A stretch of DNA of 64,000 nt, from IMG/VR virus record IMGVR_UViG_3300021254_000020, positions 160,001 to 224,000 of that record. One strand, written 5' to 3'. A program made the position numbers and the translations under genes. Shown in pieces: positions 5,104 through 19,226 of the stretch. The notes beneath the pieces are model-generated. The model was given only the letters and a program-made list of their open reading frames with translations, did no database searches and was not told the DNA's origin. Source of the stretch: a virus (lineage: Duplodnaviria; Caudoviricetes). Every line of letters begins with the position of its first letter. Position 1 is the stretch's first letter.

Positions 5104-5646
5104 GAGTTATGGATTGCGTTAGCTACCTTATACCGGTTATCCTCTGCTTCAAACTAGAATAGCAGTAACCCTCTTCGAGTAGCACGGAATTGTAATAAGG
5201 ATTTGGTTTATCAATTTGGCGGGTTATCAGATTGGGCTCGTTAAAAATACTACCAGGTATAAAAATAGTTTTATCAGGTTATCAGTTTAGGTACGTATAT
5301 CAATTTAACGAGTTATCAGTTTAGCCCATTTAAGCATCTTTGTATTTATGTGCTTAATTTGATTGAGGAAATCAATGTGACTCATTGTCCCCATATGAAC
5401 GCTCAGAGGGATTCGAACCCTCGTGATCTTTGCGATCGGAAGATTTTCGGTCTTCTGTGTTTAACCACTCCACCACAAGCGTTAACCATTCTGGTTATGT
5501 ATGAACAGCTTAAAAAGCTGGTGCAATCCTATTAGTCTTTTCTATTACCAAGAGGTAAGAGCATGTGGCCATAAGACATCTCGATTGCATTAGGAAAAGG
5601 CCCTAATTTGATTGAGGTTAATTCAGCCTCGTAATCCATAATTACT
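5104..5646 (-). ncRNA. candidate ~540-nt structured ncRNA with repeated TGATA motifs and an embedded tRNA-like domain
   Basis: No credible ORF; 5630-5641 pairs with 5107-5118 (11/12 bp); six TGATA-core motifs at 5208-5324. Confidence 0.6.
5398..5482 (-). tRNA. atypical class II (long variable arm) tRNA-like element; anticodon loop CCGAAAA (GAA in the canonical register)
   Basis: Cloverleaf: acceptor ACGCTTG/TGAGCGT, D arm GTG-GAGTGGTTAAA-CAC, anticodon stem GAAGA/TCTTC, variable arm GATC-GCAAA-GATC, T arm GAGGG-TTCGAAT-CCCTC; no encoded CCA. Confidence 0.75.
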
Positions 5647-5925
5647 CTAATATATCATTATAGCGTTTCTCAGATACGTATTGGATTTCATCTCTTCGTC
5701 TAGTCTCATTCGCATTGCCTCGATAGCATCATATGCAGTATGTGCACTTATCCATGTGTTTAACATGCTCTGCAATGACTCTGAGAGAATACGTTCCAAT
5801 TCACCAGCAAGTATAGAATCTTTCAGTTTAGGAACGATTTCAACATATAGAGTATGATTTGCTTCATTTATATCTACATAGATATAGTGAAACTCTTCTC
5901 TGTATCTGAATCTGATGCTATTCAT
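5647..5925 (-). CDS. hypothetical protein
   Basis: 92-aa ORF coupled to the upstream gene. Confidence 0.6.
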   Translation of the reverse strand: MNSIRFRYREEFHYIYVDINEANHTLYVEIVPKLKDSILAGELERILSESLQSMLNTWISAHTAYDAIEAMRMRLDEEMKSNTYLRNAIMIY

Positions 5926-5927
5926 GA

Positions 5928-6659
5928 TTAATAATCAATCTCTACTTTAGTAGAAGCATTAGCTTCACTAATAATAGAGTCGATCCGAACAATGTAATCG
6001 TTGATTGCATTGTAGTATTTCTGAATAGCGTTGTTGTTGACAAAATCATGAGGATCGATACGAATGATCTCTACAAGAGCTTCTTCTTTAGCACGTTCCT
6101 CATTATATTTATCTTGGCTCCAAGACTGTTTGCTGTCAGAGGGGAACTTACGTTCCATCTGATCTGCAACTTCTCTCTTAGCCCGATTCTCGTATTCAGC
6201 TCTCTCTTTCAAATCAGCAGTAAGAGTATTGAGAAGAGCATTAGCGAGACTCTTGAGCGGGTAATCCGTGTTATCGTAGCCAGTTTTGTTGGCGCGACCT
6301 TTATAGTTGTTCTTACGATTAATAGCCTCAGCGATAGTGATTTCTTCTTCTCCTACCTCTTTACCATTAATCAGATCACGGAAGTTAGGTTCACAAGGAA
6401 CTGTAACCAATGTGTTGTGATTGGCATGAGTATGTGCCTTCTTGAGAGCACTCAGTCGAGCCATCAGATCAGTGAATTGCTGGAACTGTTCTTTCTGATG
6501 ATTGGTCTGTTCTTCTAGAGAACGAGGACCAACATACTGGCTGTTTTTCAGGCACCAGGTTACAAATCGAAAATCATTTGATTTAATCAGATTAATGATT
6601 TGTACCTTTACTGATTTTTCCTCTGCCAGAACCTGAGTAAGTGTTAGTTCTTCGTGCAT
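5928..6659 (-). CDS. DIP1984-like coiled-coil protein
   Basis: LTLTQVLAEEK, ANHNTLV, ITIAEAINRK and C-terminal IDSIISEANASTKVEI resemble the DIP1984/DUF6847-type pattern (by eye). Confidence 0.55.
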   Translation of the reverse strand: MHEELTLTQVLAEEKSVKVQIINLIKSNDFRFVTWCLKNSQYVGPRSLEEQTNHQKEQFQQFTDLMARLSALKKAHTHANHNTLVTVPCEPNFRDLINGKEVGEEEITIAEAINRKNNYKGRANKTGYDNTDYPLKSLANALLNTLTADLKERAEYENRAKREVADQMERKFPSDSKQSWSQDKYNEERAKEEALVEIIRIDPHDFVNNNAIQKYYNAINDYIVRIDSIISEANASTKVEIDY

Positions 6660-6676
6660 GATTCTACCTCCATTAC

Positions 6677-6688
6677 TTATCAGTTTAG
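6677..6688 (-). promoter_or_regulatory. CTAAACTGATAA motif in the 5' leader just upstream of the RBS
   Basis: Exact copies at 5279-5290 and 5313-5324 in the downstream candidate ncRNA. Confidence 0.6.
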
Positions 6689-6713
6689 TGTATATTAAAA
6701 TCTAATTTAGCCG

Positions 6714-7166
6714 TTAATTGGTAGACATAATTGATTTCTTAATCAATTCGACTAAACTAGCCTTAATATCATCAAATGTACTGTCTTTGTCAGTCAGCTC
6801 ATAAGTGATATCAAACATGTAGTAGGATTTAATCGTACTATCTTGATTTACCTCTACTAAAGGAGTCTTTATATCATCATCAACTACTTCAGTGTCATAT
6901 ATAGAGATAATTGCTTCAGTGGGATCCTCTTCTTTAACATTATAATCACCGACAAATCTAACCTTTTTACCAGTCATCTTTTCTGTAAATTTCTTCCCAC
7001 TACCGGAAGGATTTACATTTCTCTTGCAAACTGTATAGGAATGACCATCTAAGAGAGCCTTGTAGTTAGCGAAAGCTTCAGCATCTTTTAAAGACTCGAA
7101 GATAGCGTTAGGTACAATCTCCCAATAATCTTTATCTCCTACATATACTTCATATATTTCTGTCAT
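6714..7166 (-). CDS. hypothetical protein
   Basis: ORF with GGAGG RBS. Confidence 0.7.
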   Translation of the reverse strand: MTEIYEVYVGDKDYWEIVPNAIFESLKDAEAFANYKALLDGHSYTVCKRNVNPSGSGKKFTEKMTGKKVRFVGDYNVKEEDPTEAIISIYDTEVVDDDIKTPLVEVNQDSTIKSYYMFDITYELTDKDSTFDDIKASLVELIKKSIMSTN

Positions 7167-7274
7167 GATACATATCCTCCATCCATTATATATTAGTATA
7201 CTTGGTTTTATTTTTTAATAAATCAATCACCCCTAGTCATTAAGACTAGGGGCAACTGTTTATTTTAGGATAGA

Positions 7275-9542
7275 TTACTCACATTTGCTCCAACCACAAT
7301 TACTGCAAGTCACACACTTTCCTTCAGGAATAAGTGTTTTCTTCCCGCACTCGGGACATACACGTTTAATCGTATCTTCCTCTTCCATATGAGCCTCCCC
7401 AATGTCTTGCTTCTTCATTACCAATTCAATAGCATCAGCAATAGCATTAGAGCAGGAGAGTGATACATCAAGTTCACCATTCCTACGAAGAAGCTGACAA
7501 GCAGGACATTGATTATTTCTCAGCTCATCTAGTACTCTAGTCAGTTTAACACCACTACGGAGTGATAAGGAGATCATACGAGTAATAGTGTTGATATTAG
7601 CCTGGCAACCACCGCTCGCATTAGTGAACACCTCAAAGATGTTCCCATCTTCCGTTTTATTAACTGTAACATACATAGATCTAGCACAGCTAGTACGTAC
7701 TCTCACTGTAGCACCTTCTACGTACTTAGTATTCCTACGACTAGGGGCATCGATACTATCATATGCAGGAACATATCCTTTAGGTACAGCTACCAGAGGC
7801 TCAGAGGTATCCTCATCATCCTTCTTCTTTTCTACACCAAGGATATTACCACGTTCGCATCCATCGACGAATACAGTGATACCTTTAAGCCCTTGTTTCC
7901 ATGCTTCCATATAGATCTCATAGATTTGTTCTTTAGTAGCATCATGGGGAAGATTAACAGTAGAACTGATCGCATTATCTACATACTCCTGAACTATGGC
8001 TTGTAGACGTACGCGATCCAAGTAAGGTACTTCATGAGACTCTATCAGGAACGGGAATCTCTTCTTAGCTTCTTCTACGCTAATACCTTCACAGTGATGG
8101 AATTTAAGAAGATCCTCTACACCACGAGCATATACCAAGAAGGTCTTTCCACTATCCTCCATGGAATGAGATGTACGTTCATAGGCGATCTTAAACATAG
8201 GTTCAATACCACCAGTATACTTACCAGCAAACAAGCTGATAGTACCAGTAGGAGCGATAGACAGAAGAGAACCATTACGAATACCATACTTCTTTATATC
8301 CCCATGCAGTTCAGGATAGGCTTGTATTTGAATAGACTTAAGAGTCTTATCAGCATCGAACTTCTTGAATGGTCCTTTAAGTTTAGCTAACTCAATACTA
8401 GTAATAAGAGCCTGCTTCATGAACTCATCCATTACGTCACTCATTAAGTGACGAGACTCTTCAGAACCATACTTGATTCCTAATGCTACGAAAGCATCAG
8501 CCATACCAAATATACCTAAACCAATGGAACGCCAATCATCAATAACCTGTTTGTTGAGTTCCAATGGTTGCATGTCTCTGCCGTAGTCTAATACTTCATC
8601 CAACATGCGTACTGCATAATGAACAGTATATTTCAAACGATCATAGTTGATATGAGCATGATCAGTAAACTTATCGTCTACCATTTCATAGAGATTAACC
8701 GAACCAAGATTACAAGAATTTCCTCTAGTACCAAAGTATTCGGCACATGGGTTTGATATATCTATTGTGTATTCAGGATATCCGCTCAGTAAATGAAAAC
8801 TACGCACACGCTCTATAAAAATAAGGCCAGGGTCCCCAAAACGGCGAGAGCACTCGCAGAATTCTTCGAAGAATTCTCTTGCATTGATTACGTTAGAGAT
8901 CTTTCCTGTCTCAGGAGAGTCAAAATGTAACTCAAAATCTCTATTTTCTTCTACCGCCTTCATAAATTTGTCAGTGAACTTGATACTGATATTCATAAAA
9001 GAGAGTTTCTCATTATTCTGCTTTACTCTGAGGTACTCATAGATATCTGGATGTTCGCAAGATAACCCGACCATAATAGCCGCCCTACGCCCGTTCTGTC
9101 CAATAACCTGACCTACTGTATCGAAGACATTAAGAAATGATACTGCTCCGCTGCTCTTTAGTGCTGAATTATTTACTCTTGCTCCTTTAGGACGAAGTGT
9201 ATCTATAGAAATACCAACACCTCCACCATAGGAGAAGATACGTGCCATATCCCTAGCAGTGTCAAATATAGATTCTATATTATCTTTGGGGATATTACCA
9301 AGAACATAGCAGTTGCTTGTACTTAGTTTACGTTTCCCCTTGTAGCCCGCCCCAAATAGAGTTCTACCTCCAGGTAAGAACCATGCCTTATCTAGTAGAG
9401 TATATGCATCATCCTTGATTTCATCACTAAAGATGCTTGCCAGTCTGGGAATGAACTCTTCTGGTTTCTCTCCTTCATGTAGATATTTACGAGTCATGAT
9501 TCCCATAGAGATTTCATTGTCATACCATTTCTTTTCACTCAT
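7275..9542 (-). CDS. nrdJ: class II (adenosylcobalamin-dependent) ribonucleotide reductase with C-terminal TSCPD-like and Zn-ribbon domains
   Basis: FLPGGR, SNCYV, GGGVG, RRAA, SNPCAE, SCNLGSVNL, IAPTGTIS, AISSTVNLP, GLKGITVF; C-terminal EGKCVTCSNCGWSKC. Confidence 0.92.
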   Translation of the reverse strand: MSEKKWYDNEISMGIMTRKYLHEGEKPEEFIPRLASIFSDEIKDDAYTLLDKAWFLPGGRTLFGAGYKGKRKLSTSNCYVLGNIPKDNIESIFDTARDMARIFSYGGGVGISIDTLRPKGARVNNSALKSSGAVSFLNVFDTVGQVIGQNGRRAAIMVGLSCEHPDIYEYLRVKQNNEKLSFMNISIKFTDKFMKAVEENRDFELHFDSPETGKISNVINAREFFEEFCECSRRFGDPGLIFIERVRSFHLLSGYPEYTIDISNPCAEYFGTRGNSCNLGSVNLYEMVDDKFTDHAHINYDRLKYTVHYAVRMLDEVLDYGRDMQPLELNKQVIDDWRSIGLGIFGMADAFVALGIKYGSEESRHLMSDVMDEFMKQALITSIELAKLKGPFKKFDADKTLKSIQIQAYPELHGDIKKYGIRNGSLLSIAPTGTISLFAGKYTGGIEPMFKIAYERTSHSMEDSGKTFLVYARGVEDLLKFHHCEGISVEEAKKRFPFLIESHEVPYLDRVRLQAIVQEYVDNAISSTVNLPHDATKEQIYEIYMEAWKQGLKGITVFVDGCERGNILGVEKKKDDEDTSEPLVAVPKGYVPAYDSIDAPSRRNTKYVEGATVRVRTSCARSMYVTVNKTEDGNIFEVFTNASGGCQANINTITRMISLSLRSGVKLTRVLDELRNNQCPACQLLRRNGELDVSLSCSNAIADAIELVMKKQDIGEAHMEEEDTIKRVCPECGKKTLIPEGKCVTCSNCGWSKCE

Positions 9543-9582: not shown

Positions 9583-9930
9583 TCATACAGTAGTTTCAGT
9601 TACTAATTTATTTATCTTATCCCATAGAGTGGGATTGTTTTCTTTAGTTACAACGGTATTAGATCCATTAGTTAGGTCAACTTCAGTTACCCTATAGCCA
9701 TGATAGAAATGTTCTTCAAAAGAACTATTGTAGGTCACGTAGAAGATATCCTCTTCATTTGAATCTTTATTCATCCACTTATCCTTTATAGTAGGATCAG
9801 TGATATGCATCATAATCAGATCTAATAGATGATCCTCAGATGTAGCATTGTGGCAGAAAATACCAGGGAGGAAGCATGATGAATCTTCCTCTTTATAAGA
9901 GTATTTGGTTATAGTATATATCTTATCCAC
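9583..9930 (-). CDS. hypothetical protein
   Basis: GTG start with GGAGG RBS. Confidence 0.65.
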   Translation of the reverse strand: MDKIYTITKYSYKEEDSSCFLPGIFCHNATSEDHLLDLIMMHITDPTIKDKWMNKDSNEEDIFYVTYNSSFEEHFYHGYRVTEVDLTNGSNTVVTKENNPTLWDKINKLVTETTV

Positions 9931-10071
9931 TTCAAAACCTCCTATATAGTGTATTAATCATCTGTTAGTGAGAAAGTATAGTTTTACTACCGCTTTATTA
10001 GCCTAATTGTAGGTTATGAGCCTAAAATAAATAAAAAATAAAGCCGACCAGATATACCGGTCGGCCATACT

Positions 10072-10815
10072 TTATTTTCTCAAGGAGCGATAACGAGGTC
10101 TAAACTTACTATCTGACTCTGCATCTTCTTCAGTTATAGCAACTGTAGCGGTATGTTCAATAGTATCACCACTGCTGGTACTTGGTTTATTTTCACACTC
10201 AGCAGATTCGAGCTTATCCTGTTCCGAGAATGTATCGATCGGAGTTCCATCTGGCCCAACCATAGTGCGAGTTTCCATATCAAGTGGGAAATGCGGAGGC
10301 TCTGCATCACACTTCGGAATATCATTGCTATCAATCGGTGTAATCGGTGTAGAATATCTAACAGGAGTATGTTTAGGCTTCTGCTCCTCTTTATGACAGT
10401 CACAGTGATCATTACCACAGTTACATTTCTTCTTGGGGACAGTAGAGAATGCTGATGGGAAAAAGGAATGAGTCAGTGCATAGCTTAGCCTGTATATATA
10501 CTCTGAGAACTGAGCTTCGCTTACTAAATCTTTTATACGAACTTTTCGATATGCTATAGAACTAATATGTATTTTCTCAAAGATAGAGACTTTATATACA
10601 CTATGGTCTGACCCTACTATGTAAGCTACTGCATCTGTCTCTCTCTTATAGTAATCTGTAGGAACTAAGAACAAGTCTTTTTTATCAGTAATAGCCGATT
10701 TGACTAATGCGGCAAAACGTTGAGTGATATCAACCAATCCATCAAATTCCATAATAACAGGAGCTGATTCTTTGGTTGTATCAATCCTCTGGATACTGAT
10801 AATAATATCAAGCAT
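10072..10815 (-). CDS. hypothetical protein with a C/H-rich patch and disordered acidic tail
   Basis: ORF track; CNCGNDHCDCH. Confidence 0.7.
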   Translation of the reverse strand: MLDIIISIQRIDTTKESAPVIMEFDGLVDITQRFAALVKSAITDKKDLFLVPTDYYKRETDAVAYIVGSDHSVYKVSIFEKIHISSIAYRKVRIKDLVSEAQFSEYIYRLSYALTHSFFPSAFSTVPKKKCNCGNDHCDCHKEEQKPKHTPVRYSTPITPIDSNDIPKCDAEPPHFPLDMETRTMVGPDGTPIDTFSEQDKLESAECENKPSTSSGDTIEHTATVAITEEDAESDSKFRPRYRSLRK

Positions 10816-13878: not shown

Positions 13879-14114
13879 TTATCCTACATTCTTATACTTA
13901 GCCTTCAAAGCTTTAATTCTGCCTATCTGATTCTGATTATAACGACGTCTACCCATATGAATAAAGGATTCCAGATTAATTACCGTATCCTTAAACACAT
14001 TTACGTCATTATTAAACAGACCGTCATTACGAGAGATACAGAATGCATTTCTCGGAGAGTAGACAGCCTCACATGCATTATCAAAGGCCTTATTGAGAAG
14101 CAACTTAATATTTA
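13879..14114 (-). CDS. RNA polymerase beta-prime N subunit, exon 3
   Basis: Reads (L)NIKLLLNKAF...SPRNAFCISRNDGLFN in frame after the micro-exon. Confidence 0.85.
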
Positions 14115-14654
14115 ATATGAATAGGTAGAGACCATGATATTATCTCATCTCTTTCCCCTCATTCGAACGCAGCAAGCGACTTTCATCGCACTACGCTTTC
14201 CATCGAGTATTATCCCGACTAGAGACCATTCCTCCATTCCCGTTACAGGAACTTCTTAGGTTCGATCTCCGCTTTTCAGCATAGGTTAAGATGCTTATCT
14301 CCATATGGTTTCGTCATCAATCTAAATCGACCTATACCTTTCTTTCGTTCAGATAGACCTATCATTACATACATATCCTTAGGTGCCTACTTTATCTATA
14401 TATACCTAGATAGTACCTGTAATACTATATGGGTGTTCTCAACTGCCACCTTACTAACCCACAATACATATAGATTTTAATAGTAGATTCGTGTCCCTCA
14501 CCATAGATATCTTATTGACTCCCGGTTTGTTCAACCGACTTTACCGAGCTACTAACCCTGATCTTTACAATCAACGCTAGTCGGAGATTAGAGGAGATAC
14601 TTCTAGGCGTTACCCTATCATTTTATCTCTCGGTCTACCCACACAAAATCGCAC
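14115..14654 (-). mobile_element. ORF-less group II intron (540 nt)
   Basis: 5' GTGCG; domain V AGCGTAGTGCGATGAAAGTCGCTTGCTGCGTT (~14165-14200); domain VI ending CCTATTCATAT; EBS1 GGCAGT (14442-14447) pairs with exon end ATTGCC; removal restores the frame. Confidence 0.9.
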
Positions 14655-14670
14655 GGCAATCTCCATCATA
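14655..14670 (-). CDS. RNA polymerase beta-prime N subunit, micro-exon 2 (TAT GAT GGA GAT TGC C = YDGDC)
   Basis: Supplies the missing part of the catalytic DxDGD motif; bounded by the group II GTGCG; complementary to the group I IGS. Confidence 0.82.
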
Positions 14671-14716
14671 TTTTAGGCTCACGCGCCGCAATTAGGAATT
14701 TAATGCGACACGATTT

Positions 14717-15830
14717 ATGAACGTACATTACTAAGACTACAGTATTATTATAAACACATCATAATCTAAGGTTGTTATTACCCTTTTCGGTAAACCCTCT
14801 ATATAATTCAGGATAGTTCTTGGTTATATTTTTAAAGGTTCTTCCAGTTCTTATAAAGCTCAAACTAGTTATGAACTTCTTATCATATGGAACTCCAAGA
14901 GCATTGGCTATCTGCATAGAATCCCTTCCAGCTACCATCATCTGGCATATTCTATCAACCGTAGAACCATCCCAAGTGTATCCCGATATATCATAATCCT
15001 TAGATATAGATTTCCATCGTTTTCCTGTTCTAATATCAGAAACCAGAGCAGCAAAATTCATATTATATGGAACTCCAACAATCTTAGCTATATCTGGTGA
15101 TTCCATACCTTGAGTAAGACATTGACAAATCGTATGAATCATCTTATATTTTTCAGCATTTTTGTTTACTGATACTATATGATAATTCTTTGCAATATCT
15201 TTCCAAGCAGTACCATTTCTGATATTGCTAATTAGAACTATCCATCGTCTATCATAAGGTACACCAAATTTTTCTGCTACTTGTTTAGAACTAATATTTG
15301 GATCCTCTAGCATTTGACAAATAGCATGCTTCATCTCTAATGGGAAATTAAAGATATGATCTCTATTTACATCATCGCTCAAAGAATACAACACATTATT
15401 CTGATAATCGGTCCACATAAGATTATCGAGTTTATTATGATATTTTACCTCATCTTTATGATGAACTAACTGACCATAATATGGATCCGATGTATCAGTA
15501 AGAAAAGTAATGGCTACCATTCTATGAACAAGCATCATAGCATCTTCTAATCTGCATCTAAGATATCCTTCCGGTAAAGATACTGGGTATATTTTCATCT
15601 GAGTAACCCTATCATATACGTTTCCGTAATTACTAACCAGATATCTCGGATTTAGTGGGAATATCCTAAATTCCTCATTAAGATAATATCCTAAAGTAAG
15701 AGCTCCATTAGAATAATCACTGGCTTTGTATTTATCTTGATTTTCTGCACCTGGTATAAATTCTTCCATTATATCACCTCCTTTACTATATGATTATAAA
15801 TTAACTGTAGTCTTAGTAATGTACGTTCAT
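14717..15830. repeat. perfect 27-bp inverted repeat (14717-14743 / 15804-15830) flanking the HNH ORF
   Basis: ATGAACGTACATTACTAAGACTACAGT and its exact reverse complement. Confidence 0.95.
14759..15769 (-). CDS. intron-encoded HNH homing endonuclease with three C-terminal HTH-like repeats
   Basis: YLVSNYGNV, VHRMVAITF, VHHKDEVKYHNKLDNLMW; 3x ICQ..GVPY..IR.G..W/FK.I.K.Y; AAGGAGGT RBS. Confidence 0.9.
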   Translation of the reverse strand: MEEFIPGAENQDKYKASDYSNGALTLGYYLNEEFRIFPLNPRYLVSNYGNVYDRVTQMKIYPVSLPEGYLRCRLEDAMMLVHRMVAITFLTDTSDPYYGQLVHHKDEVKYHNKLDNLMWTDYQNNVLYSLSDDVNRDHIFNFPLEMKHAICQMLEDPNISSKQVAEKFGVPYDRRWIVLISNIRNGTAWKDIAKNYHIVSVNKNAEKYKMIHTICQCLTQGMESPDIAKIVGVPYNMNFAALVSDIRTGKRWKSISKDYDISGYTWDGSTVDRICQMMVAGRDSMQIANALGVPYDKKFITSLSFIRTGRTFKNITKNYPELYRGFTEKGNNNLRL

Positions 15831-16259
15831 CAACAATTATCTAACCTTTCGGCTACCATAGACTATATCAGTCCCCCAGCATTACCTGGTAGGGTGCTAG
15901 CACTTCGCTACTAGGATCGTCAATCCGTTCGCTACAGGGAGCTGATCCCCTTAGTCGTTGAACCCCTTTCGAGGATGCTGATTGCCGATTTACTTCTATG
16001 CCCTTAGCACAGTCTATCTCTCCCTAGAAGTTGGGTATTCTACAATAGATCTGCTTTTATTTCAGCTTAGGCTATCTTTAGGATTTGTTTCTACTTTCGT
16101 AGCATGCCTACTATATAGACGATGCACCTAAAGCTTTACGATGTTCCAGCAGTTCACTAGCTCTCACTCACATATTACTATATGAGCGGACCATGATTTA
16201 GAAATTGTCTAAATCGCCCTTTTTTGTAATTTAGGCTCGCGCCTTAACAAAATTAGGGG

Positions 16260-17597
16260 GTCAGCCGCAAGTCCACTGAGGACGAATTGATCCAATGAGA
16301 GAACCGCACTGTCTGTATTGACTCCGACTACCCTCTTCCATACTATGGATTCGTAATGGATAGTAGGATTGCGGTTAATCAATACATGGATCTTATCCAT
16401 CTTAATCAGGTTGTTGAGGATATCTAGTACCCTCTGATCAAGCTGCAGTGTAGCATAATACCATTTCTTATATGCCTCAGCATATGTAATATTATAGCTA
16501 CTCTGTATGATATTGATCAATACCTGTTCTAAGAGCAATACGAGACCAGTATAGGGTAACATAACTTCGTCAGACCTCAGTTTACTATCCGGCACAATGA
16601 TAGACCGTTCAGAGAAAGCAGTACGTCCAGATATAGTAGAACGCATTATACCTCTCTTATCTGCTAATATGCGGATAATCTCATCAGAGAGTTCACTTAG
16701 CTTAACCTGCATATCCCAGAGAATCTGATTCTGTAGTTTGGGATTTCTATAGATAGAGAGAGTATCATTATTGAGTTGAGCTCCTAATGATGCTAAGATA
16801 TTAAAGGTAGCATTGGTTTTCTCGAAAGTAAACCGCTTACCTTCTACCTTAGCAATACGAAGCTGGGTGGTATAGATAGGGATAGAATGAGAGAATACAC
16901 AATCTCTATGCTGCATAATGAGATCGTATACATCCTTCTTATTTTTTCTTTTCTTTAAGAAGTATGCCAGTATCTCATCAAACTTCTCATAAAAACCCAT
17001 CATACCAAGGCTCTCATATTTAGAGTCTAATTTACTCTTCTTCTTATATCTACGAGCATTCTTTCTCTTAAAGATTTTTCTATCATATGAACTCATGGGT
17101 TTACCATCAGCATCGAGTTCGATAGCTGGTTCTAATATAGACTCCAAGTTATCTTTTCCGATGATGGAGATGAGTTCTACATAGATAGCAGGATTGATTA
17201 TATGATATTGATCCTTTAAATGGATATATCCAAAGTAGGTGAAATCATCACCTACTAATTTAGCGGGAGTTCCACAATAAGGACAGTAGAAGTTAGGATG
17301 GTCCATCACAGAATTAAATGCTCCTTGCAGATAGCCACAAGCACATTTGTATCTGTGAGAGAATGCTGCTTCATCTCCAAGCTGTCTACCAAACTTAGTA
17401 GAGAAGATAGATGTGTCACTCTTCAAGGATTTTTGAAGAGGTTGCTTTGAATCGATAATGAATGCTTGCCCAACACTCATATCTTTCTCAAACTCATTAT
17501 CAAGATTGAGTATAGACAGTTTAACGAAATAATCATATTCATTATCTCTAGGATAATGAATATTGAGTTTCACGTCTTTCAGGCTATTCTCATCCAT
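16260..17597 (-). CDS. multi-subunit RNA polymerase beta-prime N subunit, exon 1 (spliced product ~529 aa)
   Basis: Zn finger CACG..CPYCG, FGYIHL, KRGIMR..ISGRTAFSERSIIVP, INRNPTI; ends LAAD at the first catalytic Asp. Confidence 0.9.
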
Positions 17598-17599
17598 AA

Positions 17600-17857
17600 T
17601 TAATCCTCTCTAATAACCCAGTCATTAGCCAACATATCAGCTTGAGAAGCCAACCAACCAAGCTGTACTCCTCTAGTGCCTACGAAAGCTATAGCCTGAT
17701 TACCGATATCCTTATGATCAGCATTGATAATCTCACCACGAGCATTCATGTAAGAGATATTAGTGGCGAGTTCAATGTACTGATCTTTGCCATTCCATCC
17801 CATACGGGATACTCTCTTTCCTTCCTTCATTGCATTGATAGCTTCACCAAAATTCAT
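17600..17857 (-). CDS. DUF2829 / Tad2-like protein (candidate immune-signal sponge)
   Basis: MNFGEAI.AMK.GKRV.R.GWNGK...GWLASQADMLANDW signature. Confidence 0.8.
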   Translation of the reverse strand: MNFGEAINAMKEGKRVSRMGWNGKDQYIELATNISYMNARGEIINADHKDIGNQAIAFVGTRGVQLGWLASQADMLANDWVIRED

Positions 17858-18231
17858 TTTTCATCCTCCTCTAATTTACTTAACTCTTCTTTAAGATAAT
17901 ACTTACGATTAGACCAACATACGTGATTAATTAGATCAACCAATCCACTACGTGCCATGTCTTTATTATAACGGTAAACACAATTTATGAGATTTCCTAA
18001 AGTACACCGCACATCAGCTTTGTTAGTATAATCTATTTCGCTAGCACCCGATAAGTCATTGTCTATAGGGAACTTAACGAACATATCCAAATGATTAGCC
18101 ATTAATTCTATAAATGAATATGCTATCGCATAATCACTATCTCTAGGTATATCAGTACTAGCATAGATATTATCGTAAGCATCTAGATCCTTAAATAATA
18201 CCTGTCTTATGTCTTCAACAGTACCCTTCAC
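17854..18231 (-). CDS. hypothetical protein
   Basis: GTG start, GAGGAG RBS. Confidence 0.65.
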   Translation of the reverse strand: MKGTVEDIRQVLFKDLDAYDNIYASTDIPRDSDYAIAYSFIELMANHLDMFVKFPIDNDLSGASEIDYTNKADVRCTLGNLINCVYRYNKDMARSGLVDLINHVCWSNRKYYLKEELSKLEEDEK

Positions 18232-18249
18232 AATATTCTCCTCTCTTAA

Positions 18250-18525
18250 TTATAATTCTGAGTCTTTGACTGTATAATTCTCCCACTTCTTATACACGTC
18301 AACATAAGTCTGTTTGCGATCACCATCATGAGTAATCTCATAATACATACCATCGCTCACTTCAGTAGACACTAATGCTTTCCAGTTCTGAAGAGTTTTG
18401 CAGAACCAGACTATGAATACATTATCTTTTGTGATAATGAAATCATCAGTCACATCTCTATGAGCATTGAAGTAGTCTACTACTATCTGCTTAGCAGTAT
18501 TTATCATCTCATCATTCCTAGTCAT
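18250..18525 (-). CDS. DUF6275-like phage protein
   Basis: VWFCKTLQNWKALVST..DGMYYEIT.DGD....YVDVYKKWEN. Confidence 0.75.
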   Translation of the reverse strand: MTRNDEMINTAKQIVVDYFNAHRDVTDDFIITKDNVFIVWFCKTLQNWKALVSTEVSDGMYYEITHDGDRKQTYVDVYKKWENYTVKDSEL

Positions 18526-18545
18526 AGGACCTTCACCCCCTTTCG

Positions 18546-19226
18546 TTAGTCATGCATTACGTTATCGGACCAGCAATATCCGTATAACTCTTGCACCTTA
18601 TCTTCTTCCTCATAATATGTCTGATCGTATACCTTTTCTCCTCTCTCATAGACAGTATGTCCTACGAAGTTAGGCATCTCATCAGCATACTTATGATCTA
18701 TTCTCATATTGGGATTATCTTTCGCTAGCTTCTCCATTACTGGAGTGGGATCAGACCATGCTGTATTGAAAGCAATGGTATTATCATCTACTTTATACTG
18801 AGTATACGCGTCCCATTTAGTACCCCAGTTAGAGATTCTCCAATCATACCAATTTGGGAATCCATATTTCTTTTCATTCTCAAAAGATTGTTTAGCCTTT
18901 TCGAGATCAACTGTTCCATCATCAATGAGTTTTTGGGCTGCTTCCTCATGAGTTAATTTATTTTCGTTATCGTCAGCCCATGTATGAATACATTGATAAT
19001 CATCATCCTTTAAAGTTTCTCCTTTCTTCATCATTCGGTATATGTCTCTAGATAATAGTGTTCTACTACCACTAACAATATTCAATTCTTCCGGCATGGG
19101 GATAATCTTATTAAAGGAGATATATTGATTCTCCTTTTCTCCATGGATCTCTTGTAGTAATTCACTTACAGTCTTCCCCTCATCAAGCTGTTCAAACTTG
19201 ACAACGTTTCTTACATGATTTGGCAT
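18546..19226 (-). CDS. DUF1281/YubB ferredoxin-like domain protein
   Basis: MPNHVRN, FNKIIPMPEEL, WYDWRISNWGTKW, FNTAWSDP. Confidence 0.75.
   Translation of the reverse strand: MPNHVRNVVKFEQLDEGKTVSELLQEIHGEKENQYISFNKIIPMPEELNIVSGSRTLLSRDIYRMMKKGETLKDDDYQCIHTWADDNENKLTHEEAAQKLIDDGTVDLEKAKQSFENEKKYGFPNWYDWRISNWGTKWDAYTQYKVDDNTIAFNTAWSDPTPVMEKLAKDNPNMRIDHKYADEMPNFVGHTVYERGEKVYDQTYYEEEDKVQELYGYCWSDNVMHD

Follow-up and report, generated by a model that had tools for sequence, protein, structure and literature searches.

A 64,000-nucleotide (nt) stretch of viral DNA, called the window below, covers bases 160001–224000 of an IMG/VR virus record that is 266 kb long and has a completeness rating of 100%. 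It carries a phage RNA polymerase (RNAP) subunit gene whose active-site codons are interrupted twice, once by a group I intron and once by a group II intron, with a micro-exon of 16 nt between them. Our preferred explanation, to which we give a probability of about 0.7, is that two selfish introns inserted independently into the catalytic-loop DNA of this gene, and that both must be removed. The gene would encode the N-terminal beta' subunit of the phage non-virion multisubunit RNAP (nvRNAP), the two unrelated self-splicing introns would each have entered the codons of the A-D-Y-D-G-D loop on their own, and the 529-residue protein would require the removal of both.

Three exons and their junctions

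A 462-codon minus-strand open reading frame (ORF) starts at 17597, with homology that ends at ...LAAD (GAC, 16260) and unrelated sequence beyond. The homologous part, exon 1, matches PHROG 2987 (RNAP beta subunit, E=9e-45) and, taken alone, reaches 25.0 bits against Pfam PF00623 (Rpb1 domain 2), just under the cut-off of 25.3. Homologues found by tblastn were phiR1-37 g274, annotated 'RpoC N-terminus', and AR9 g270 (non-virion RNAP beta'-N); judged by this similarity, the gene is a homologue of the AR9 gp270/phiR1-37 g274-type nvRNAP beta'-N subunit. A megablast search of the locus against GenBank phages gave no match. Relatives were gathered with a profile search, which returned 73 IMG/VR loci where a locus search with a single protein had returned none, and further ENA, JGI and Logan contigs were fetched separately.

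Joining the three exons (1338 + 16 + 236 = 1590 nt) yields 529 codons followed by a single terminal stop. The joined protein reads AADYDGDCLNIK; around the active site the frame runs ...LAADYDGDCLNIK..., or in a wider readout ...LAADYDGDCLNIKLLLNKAFDNACEAVY..., and the predicted ligated RNA junctions are GCUGAC/UAUGAUGGAGAUUGCC/UAAAUAUU (here and below, slashes within sequences mark junctions). The ADYDGD motif is present only once all three exons are joined. This product aligns over its full length with intronless homologues of 522–542 residues, with 63% identity to proteins P0019 and P0012, and exon 3 corresponds to the C-terminal 79 residues of those homologues. At the motif, dozens of full-length relatives read ADFDGD(C/T/V)LN (an intronless example being ADFDGDCLNIK), and phiR1-37 has GADYDGDVLNF at the same place.

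The junctions can also be read directly in close relatives. Over exon 1, database protein P0002 matches the window at 100% identity, and its last residues are ...AADYDGDCRAILCG. It comes from contigs L004 and L005, two genomes very close to that of the window (95–98% DNA identity), which read GCGGCTGAT/TATGATGGGGATTGCC/GTGCGATTTTG, that is, GCTGAT/TATGATGGGGATTGCC/GTGCG: intron 1 is exactly absent and the same group II intron is present. The three-exon layout, the coordinates and the frame of about 529 residues had been proposed in an earlier note made from these letters alone, and all are confirmed by the join, by L004/L005 and by the intronless homologues.

The same comparison carries a signature of mobility. 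Over the micro-exon, the group II intron and the start of exon 3, the window differs from L004 at 4 of 571 positions, and about 1 mismatch per 100 nt is seen downstream through exon 3. Upstream of intron 1, mismatches rise to 5–11 per 100 nt over some 700 nt, with 8 in the last 40 nt, and fall back to 0–3 per 100 nt farther upstream in the gene. This is the pattern of a co-conversion tract, which homing driven by an endonuclease would leave behind when the donor is diverged: the HNH endonuclease of intron 1 would cut intronless alleles, and repair would copy the intron in. The presence/absence polymorphism of intron 1, this co-conversion tract and the varied intron combinations of relatives (described below) all fit independent selfish insertions, which is why we prefer that explanation.

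The intron-plus allele also recurs in ENA assembly L300 (ERZ12302850), with identical ends and 99.95% identity over 4101 nt, and in JGI assembly L301, which covers the 5' end of intron 1 only, that end being identical. Because the same ends recur in independent assemblies, the sequence of intron 1 is not an assembly artefact. Intron-plus L300 and intron-minus L004 (ERZ12302821) come from neighbouring sample accessions.

Gene callers give truncated proteins at these loci, of 462 residues with an intron-derived tail in the window (16259–16212) and of 457 residues ending CRAILCG in L004, and read-through into an intron forms the end of many homologues in the protein database.

Two introns of different classes

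Intron 1 is, with qualifications and as judged from its sequence, a group I intron. A nucleotide profile (nhmmer) built from 11 ORF-less relatives, with the window excluded, matches 16199–15855 with E=9.5e-34, far better than chance would give; this is its sole match in the genome, and the same profile also detects the intron of the AR9 virion RNAP. RNAalifold on the 11-sequence alignment recovered P4, a 3-bp P5 and P7 (GACUA/UAGUC), with compensatory changes in P5 in 5 of the 11 sequences, while the assignment of P3, P6, P8 and P9 is by eye alone. Against RF00028, the group I model of Rfam, intron 1 gave no match at the gathering threshold or at E<=10; in a control the model also missed the annotated AR9 intron and relatives with canonical ends, so that its silence is uninformative.

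The ORF within intron 1 matches PHROG 59 HNH endonuclease (E=9.5e-31) and PHROG 959 (4.4e-17). An HNH motif (VHHKD..HN..DN) is readable in it, and Pfam yields weak helix-turn-helix (HTH) matches only. A perfect 26-bp inverted repeat (15829–15804/14743–14718) loops out the ORF, which shares 31% identity with the ORF that the L007 intron carries at another place in the ribozyme. The GACAAUC-P4' motif, the P7 sequence, the looped-out endonuclease ORF and the short P1 are presumably traits of the T4 td type (subgroup IA); in td-type introns the 5' site is a U.G pair and the last base is G, whereas intron 1 has C and A. A scan of metagenomes with a 26-nt core motif returned a single truncated intron in a different gene: on JGI contig L179 (3290–3517), a group I core almost the same as the P4–P6 region of the window follows ..DADFD of a Toprim-like gene. 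This intron lineage has therefore also settled in Asp-rich motifs of other active sites.

An internal guide just 5' of the P2 hairpin links intron 1 to its exons. Its GUC is complementary to the GAC that ends exon 1 (P1, 3–4 bp), and its AUCAUG to the UAUGAU that opens the micro-exon (P10, 6 bp including one G.U), so placed that the guide would align exon 1 GAC and the first six micro-exon bases for ligation. The layout recurs in L006, L007, L066, L069, L076 and L085, where the guide covaries with the UAU, UUU and UUC codons (examples in the table); in L083 the guide was read as AUCAGA/GUC, paired with GAU/UUUGAU.

Intron 2 starts with GTGCG at 14654, directly after the micro-exon TATGATGGAGATTGCC, and matches two Rfam group II models: RF02004 (D1–D4 type 5) at 91.4 bits (cut-off 34.5) and RF00029 (D5/D6, domains 5 and 6) at 43.1 bits (cut-off 40). 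Its boundaries, 5' GUGCGA (GUGCG 14654–14650) and 3' ..CAUAU at 14115, fit GUGYG/AY. Exon-binding site 1 (EBS1) and its partner in the exon, intron-binding site 1 (IBS1), covary across five intron/exon pairs: GGCAGU/AUUGCC, GGCAAU/AUUGUC, CACCGU/ACGGUG, CUCCAU/AUGGAG and CUCCGU/ACGGGG, the compensatory EBS1 changes being located in L009, L007, L083 and L084. This covariation is strong evidence, at the level of sequence, that these introns recognise their exons in the group II manner; EBS1 of intron 2 would bind the last six micro-exon bases, followed by lariat splicing, alone or with host help. Homologous group II introns occupy two insertion points, one after GAUUG(C/U)C (L004, L009) and one within the third Asp codon, behind its first base (L007, L083, L084). 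The covariation also points to retargeting of the family, and a reverse transcriptase would therefore have been available at some time.

The earlier note had assigned the two introns to group I and group II, and both identities hold, through the profile of relatives in one case and the two Rfam models in the other. Infernal models, which it had named as a check for both, were positive for group II and silent for group I, with a model blind to the AR9 intron too. Its further claim that the micro-exon serves both ribozymes also stands, given the 6-bp P10 with the guide and the 6-bp IBS1–EBS1 pairing that covaries across relatives.

Both ends of intron 1 differ from those of canonical relatives. 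Some 60 extra nt (16259–16200) stand at the 5' end, ahead of the profile alignment that begins at 16199, and the 3' tail is also distinct. Each of these arms carries the motif CCTAATT-(hairpin GGC..GCC)-TAAA. In L006 the motif is found in both arms with its own co-varying hairpin sequence, and in L007 there is a 5' copy only. A solo copy lies on the opposite strand in the spacer between minus-strand ORFs 10815..10072 and 9930..9583, where it adjoins a bidirectional terminator-like hairpin (GCCGACC..GGTCGGC) with T-runs on either side; this copy is unchanged in L004 and L005, genomes without intron 1, and may act as a small RNA, as a site for protein binding or as a signal of promoter type. A pairing of the two arms with each other was considered and rejected: the arms are direct repeats rather than complementary, and the duplex fold was unconvincing.

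Table 1. Features of the split polymerase gene and its introns, in window coordinates, with guide sequences from three relatives
Feature	Position	Strand	Description
Exon 1, nvRNAP beta'-N gene	17597-16260	-	446 codons, 1338 nt; ends GCT GAC (..LAAD)
Intron 1	16259-14671	-	1589 nt; group I (td-like), HNH ORF inside
5' arm motif	16257-16229	-	CCTAATT..GGCGCG.GAGCCTAAA; inside the ~60-nt insertion
Ribozyme core	16199-15855	-	P1 3' strand, P2, P3-P9; profile match and RNAalifold
Internal guide	16197-16189	-	AUCAUG/GUC; just 5' of the P2 hairpin
P4	16152-16146 / 15982-15975	-	UGCUGG/UCAGCA
P7	15956- / -15861	-	GACUA / UAGUC
HNH homing endonuclease ORF	15769-14759	-	336 aa, three HTH-like repeats; PHROG 59
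3' arm motif copy	14696-14671	-	ends the intron with ...GAGCCUAAAA
Micro-exon	14670-14655	-	TATGATGGAGATTGCC; 16 nt = Y D G D C + 1 nt
Intron 2	14654-14115	-	540 nt; group II, ORF-less
EBS1	14447-14442	-	GGCAGU; complement of IBS1 AUUGCC
D5	14197-14166	-	begins AGC (triad), GAAA loop
Exon 3	14114-13879	-	236 nt; TA AAT ATT AAG ... stop; 78 codons after the completed Leu codon
Solo motif copy	10002-10029	+	CCTAATTGTAGGTTATGAGCCTAAAA; intergenic spacer, opposite strand
Guide in L006			AUCAAA/GUC; exon partners GAU/UUUGA
Guide in L007			GUCAAA/GUC; exon partners GAC/UUUGAC
Guide in L069			UUCGAG/GUC; exon partners GAU/UUCGA

The ends of intron 1 and competing explanations

We infer that both introns splice, accurately even at the non-canonical sites of intron 1. 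A number of observations weigh against this. P1 of intron 1 has 3–4 bp only; the last base of the 5' exon is C, giving a C-G pair in place of U.G; and the intron ends ...GAGCCUAAAA, with a terminal A where G is expected, the closest Gs lying 7 and 9 nt upstream of the 3' end (14678 and 14680). A compensating change in the presumed guanosine-binding pair of P7 was sought among relatives ending in A or G, and none was found. For intron 2, duplex folding across homologues gave no consistent site for an EBS2/IBS2 pairing, the 266-kb genome has no RVT_1 or GIIM match and the intron contains no ORF. The spliced form of the protein, as a cDNA assembly might supply, is absent among the protein database matches. 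With regard to intron 2, ORF-less group II members are known, so that a missing reverse transcriptase or maturase is compatible with membership (PMC12350094).

The unusual ends of intron 1 are best judged against its relatives. Of 18 introns at exactly this site, 16 follow an exon that ends in U, the window and L007 having C instead, and 13 have G as their own last base, with A in the window, L006, L047, L048 and L069. The 3'-terminal A is thus found in three separate lineages (the window with L006, L047 with L048, and L069). Between the nearly identical L046, which ends in G, and L048, which ends in A, a C-G pair in the terminal hairpin that includes the last intron base has become U-A, a compensatory change that suggests selection rather than decay. 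These group I introns span about 5788–6330 and 5788–7192 in the L046/L048/L047 set and 6805–7903 in L069. The presumed guanosine-binding pair of P7, placed at G15956-C15861 with a bulged C before it (an alignment by eye, by analogy with Tetrahymena G264-C311), is identical in relatives ending in G and in A. Engineered Tetrahymena mutants with an altered guanosine-binding pair in P7 are adenosine-specific.

Taken together with the arms, these data lead to a tentative proposal, which we rate at somewhat less than an even chance: this group I lineage would splice accurately without either hallmark nucleotide, after C and with a 3'-terminal A beside an unchanged guanosine-binding pair, by relying on a strong P10 and perhaps on the hairpin motif of the arms as a handle for a protein or RNA, all this 16 nt from a group II intron that shares its micro-exon. 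Such introns would be natural exceptions to two rules treated as universal, and would be systematically missed, since intron-finding pipelines build in the U and G rules. A recent intron database requires U at the last exon position, and because it enforces this by construction, introns with C at position -1 would be filtered out of it (PMC11835236). Our literature search for natural group I introns without a terminal G found nothing relevant, and a scan with a degenerate 3'-end pattern gave non-specific matches.

The same nucleotides admit the opposite conclusion, namely that C at -1 and the 3' A impair splicing, that little or no beta'-N is made, and that the window holds a selfish or defective variant living beside intron-less siblings that supply the subunit. 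Both canonical nucleotides are indeed missing with the presumed guanosine-binding pair unchanged, and the intron-plus and intron-minus alleles do come from neighbouring sample accessions. Nevertheless, at least three assemblies hold the allele, with its HNH ORF, guide and core intact, and the genome record is rated 100% complete; the terminal A also recurs in three lineages, and the change of its pairing partner between L046 and L048 suggests selection. We regard an impaired allele as unlikely.

A second alternative, and the one the earlier note had favoured, is a regulatory gate, in which the two ribozymes compete for the micro-exon or act on it in a fixed order and so time the production of the nvRNAP. 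The micro-exon does pair with both ribozymes, and in the 10-nt micro-exons of L007 and L083 the P10 partner (nt 1–6) and IBS1 (nt 5–10) overlap by 2 nt, so that the two pairings cannot fully coexist there. In the window, by contrast, P10 uses nt 1–6 and IBS1 nt 11–16. Because these stretches do not overlap, no splicing order is forced, and none would be required on this reading of the sequence. Near-identical phages without intron 1 and many intronless relatives show that the arrangement is not needed, the co-conversion tract identifies intron 1 as a selfish element gained recently, and a conserved regulatory feature was not found. We therefore consider a gate rather improbable; the polymorphism and the co-conversion tract fit selfish insertions instead.

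A very improbable third option is that intron 1 splices at cryptic sites of the canonical type, so that a few extra codons stay in frame in the message. Both available combinations are in frame (cleavage after U16255 with ligation after G14678, adding 12 nt, PLLK; or cleavage after 16260 with ligation after G14680, adding 9 nt, SLK), and L006 has a G exactly 9 nt upstream of the exon (in-frame PKK). But the guide abuts GAC and UAUGAU without room for extra bases, none of the intronless full-length homologues bearing the motif has extra residues between its first Asp and [FY]DGD, and an insertion inside the Mg-binding NADFDGD loop of a multisubunit RNAP should abolish catalysis. Ligation at the Gs at 14678 and 14680, alone or with U16255, would yield either a frameshift or one of these 9- or 12-nt insertions in that loop. 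Twintron and cryptic-site models for intron 1 were both rejected on the position of the guide against GAC/UAUGAU and on the homologues without insertion. Independent insertion of two selfish introns, both of them removed, thus remains our preferred account.

Intron crowding in relatives and in known systems

Many loci carry introns within the same 18 bases of the motif. Group I introns follow the first Asp codon, the second Asp codon or Gly (the AR9 site), and single introns occupy the three sites in about 30 other loci. Group II introns stand alone in L009 and L084. A group I intron, a 10-nt exon and a group II intron follow one another in L007/L008 and L083, and a group I intron, a 9-nt exon and a second group I intron in L081. 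In L007 (5369–7089) and L083 (about 5343–7258), an HNH-bearing group I intron precedes the 10-nt micro-exon (TTTGACGGTG and TTTGATGGAG, respectively), and the group II intron interrupts the third Asp codon between its first and second bases. Such crowding is what homing elements should produce if they target those parts of an essential gene that vary least.

Further details were seen in individual loci. In L081 (6196–7509), the 9-nt micro-exon TTCGACGGC lies between two group I introns, the first with an ORF and the second following C (GGC/C). In L085 (6333–7050), a group II-like element after a group I intron and TTTGACGGCGATACC scores 68 bits with RF02004 and 41.5 bits with RF00029, and its 5' end lacks GUGCG at the expected place. 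The related phage L009 has a ribonucleotide reductase large-subunit gene with an intein (8844–9404, precomputed Pfam marks), further evidence of heavy invasion of the clade by homing elements.

Elsewhere in the window, the minus-strand region directly upstream of the polymerase gene (17600–19226) holds, besides genes with DUF6275 and DUF1281_C, a Tad2-like gene of 85 codons (PHROG 1048/872, with PF11195 in the L004 homologue), a group that may be an anti-defence cluster. A tRNA-like gene with a long variable arm lies at 5398–5482 on the minus strand (Rfam tRNA, 49.9 bits).

Among the closest known systems is the homologous gene AR9 g270, whose annotated HNH-bearing group I intron (g271) lies in the same DYDGD codons, 7 nt downstream, and shares its P7 sequences with intron 1 (CAACGACUA/AUAUAGUCU); the earlier note, too, had stated that group I introns occur in AR9-like RNAP genes. 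The AR9 intron follows GGT (DYDG/D), has canonical U/G ends and an ORF upstream of P7, and is accompanied by no second intron or micro-exon, whereas intron 1 of the window follows the first Asp, has its ORF in a stem on the P9 side, ends in C/A and bears extra terminal arms.

Both intron classes also meet in the virion RNAP beta'-N gene of AR9/PBS1 (g145; Merk, Jones & Eddy, NAR 2025, PMC12350094), so that double invasion of phage RNAP beta' genes by introns of groups I and II is already published. The earlier premise that group II introns are rare in phages is dated for the same reason, as the 2025 survey of them in phages included the AR9/PBS1 RNAP genes (PMC12350094). As in the window, the group I intron of g145 sits in DYDGD codons, where it follows the second Asp codon (GDYD); the end of the group II intron lies about 190 nt upstream of it. 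The two genes differ in polymerase (virion in g145, non-virion in the window), in intron order (group II then group I, against group I then group II), in the middle exon (~190 nt against 16 nt) and in the group II intron, which carries a homing endonuclease in g145 and is ORF-less here. The C/A ends of intron 1 and the tiny middle exon are new features.

More distant parallels exist. Mini-exons flanked by self-splicing introns are found in strongly conserved coding regions of organellar genes, as are mixed twintrons; these belong to organelle genomes and usually involve one intron class, whereas the window is from a phage and has two classes side by side, not nested. The mobile intron of PhiPA3, with its endonuclease gp210, is reported to show that homing introns can matter when co-infecting phages compete (Birkholz et al., Science 2024, PMC11620839). 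PhiPA3 is, like the phage of the window, a jumbo phage with a homing-endonuclease intron, though of a different clade and with a single group I intron.

For annotation, the consequence is that without recognition of both introns this gene is recorded as a truncated 462-residue protein and a 74-residue fragment. More generally, the case shows how densely selfish introns can settle in the best-conserved part of a gene that is essential: here five active-site residues lie on an exon of 16 nt, which has to be recognised by each of two different ribozymes. With exons of 16, 10 and 9 nt, pairs of group I with group II and of group I with group I, and intron-plus and intron-minus siblings, the clade offers a natural series for the folding and splicing of adjacent ribozymes.

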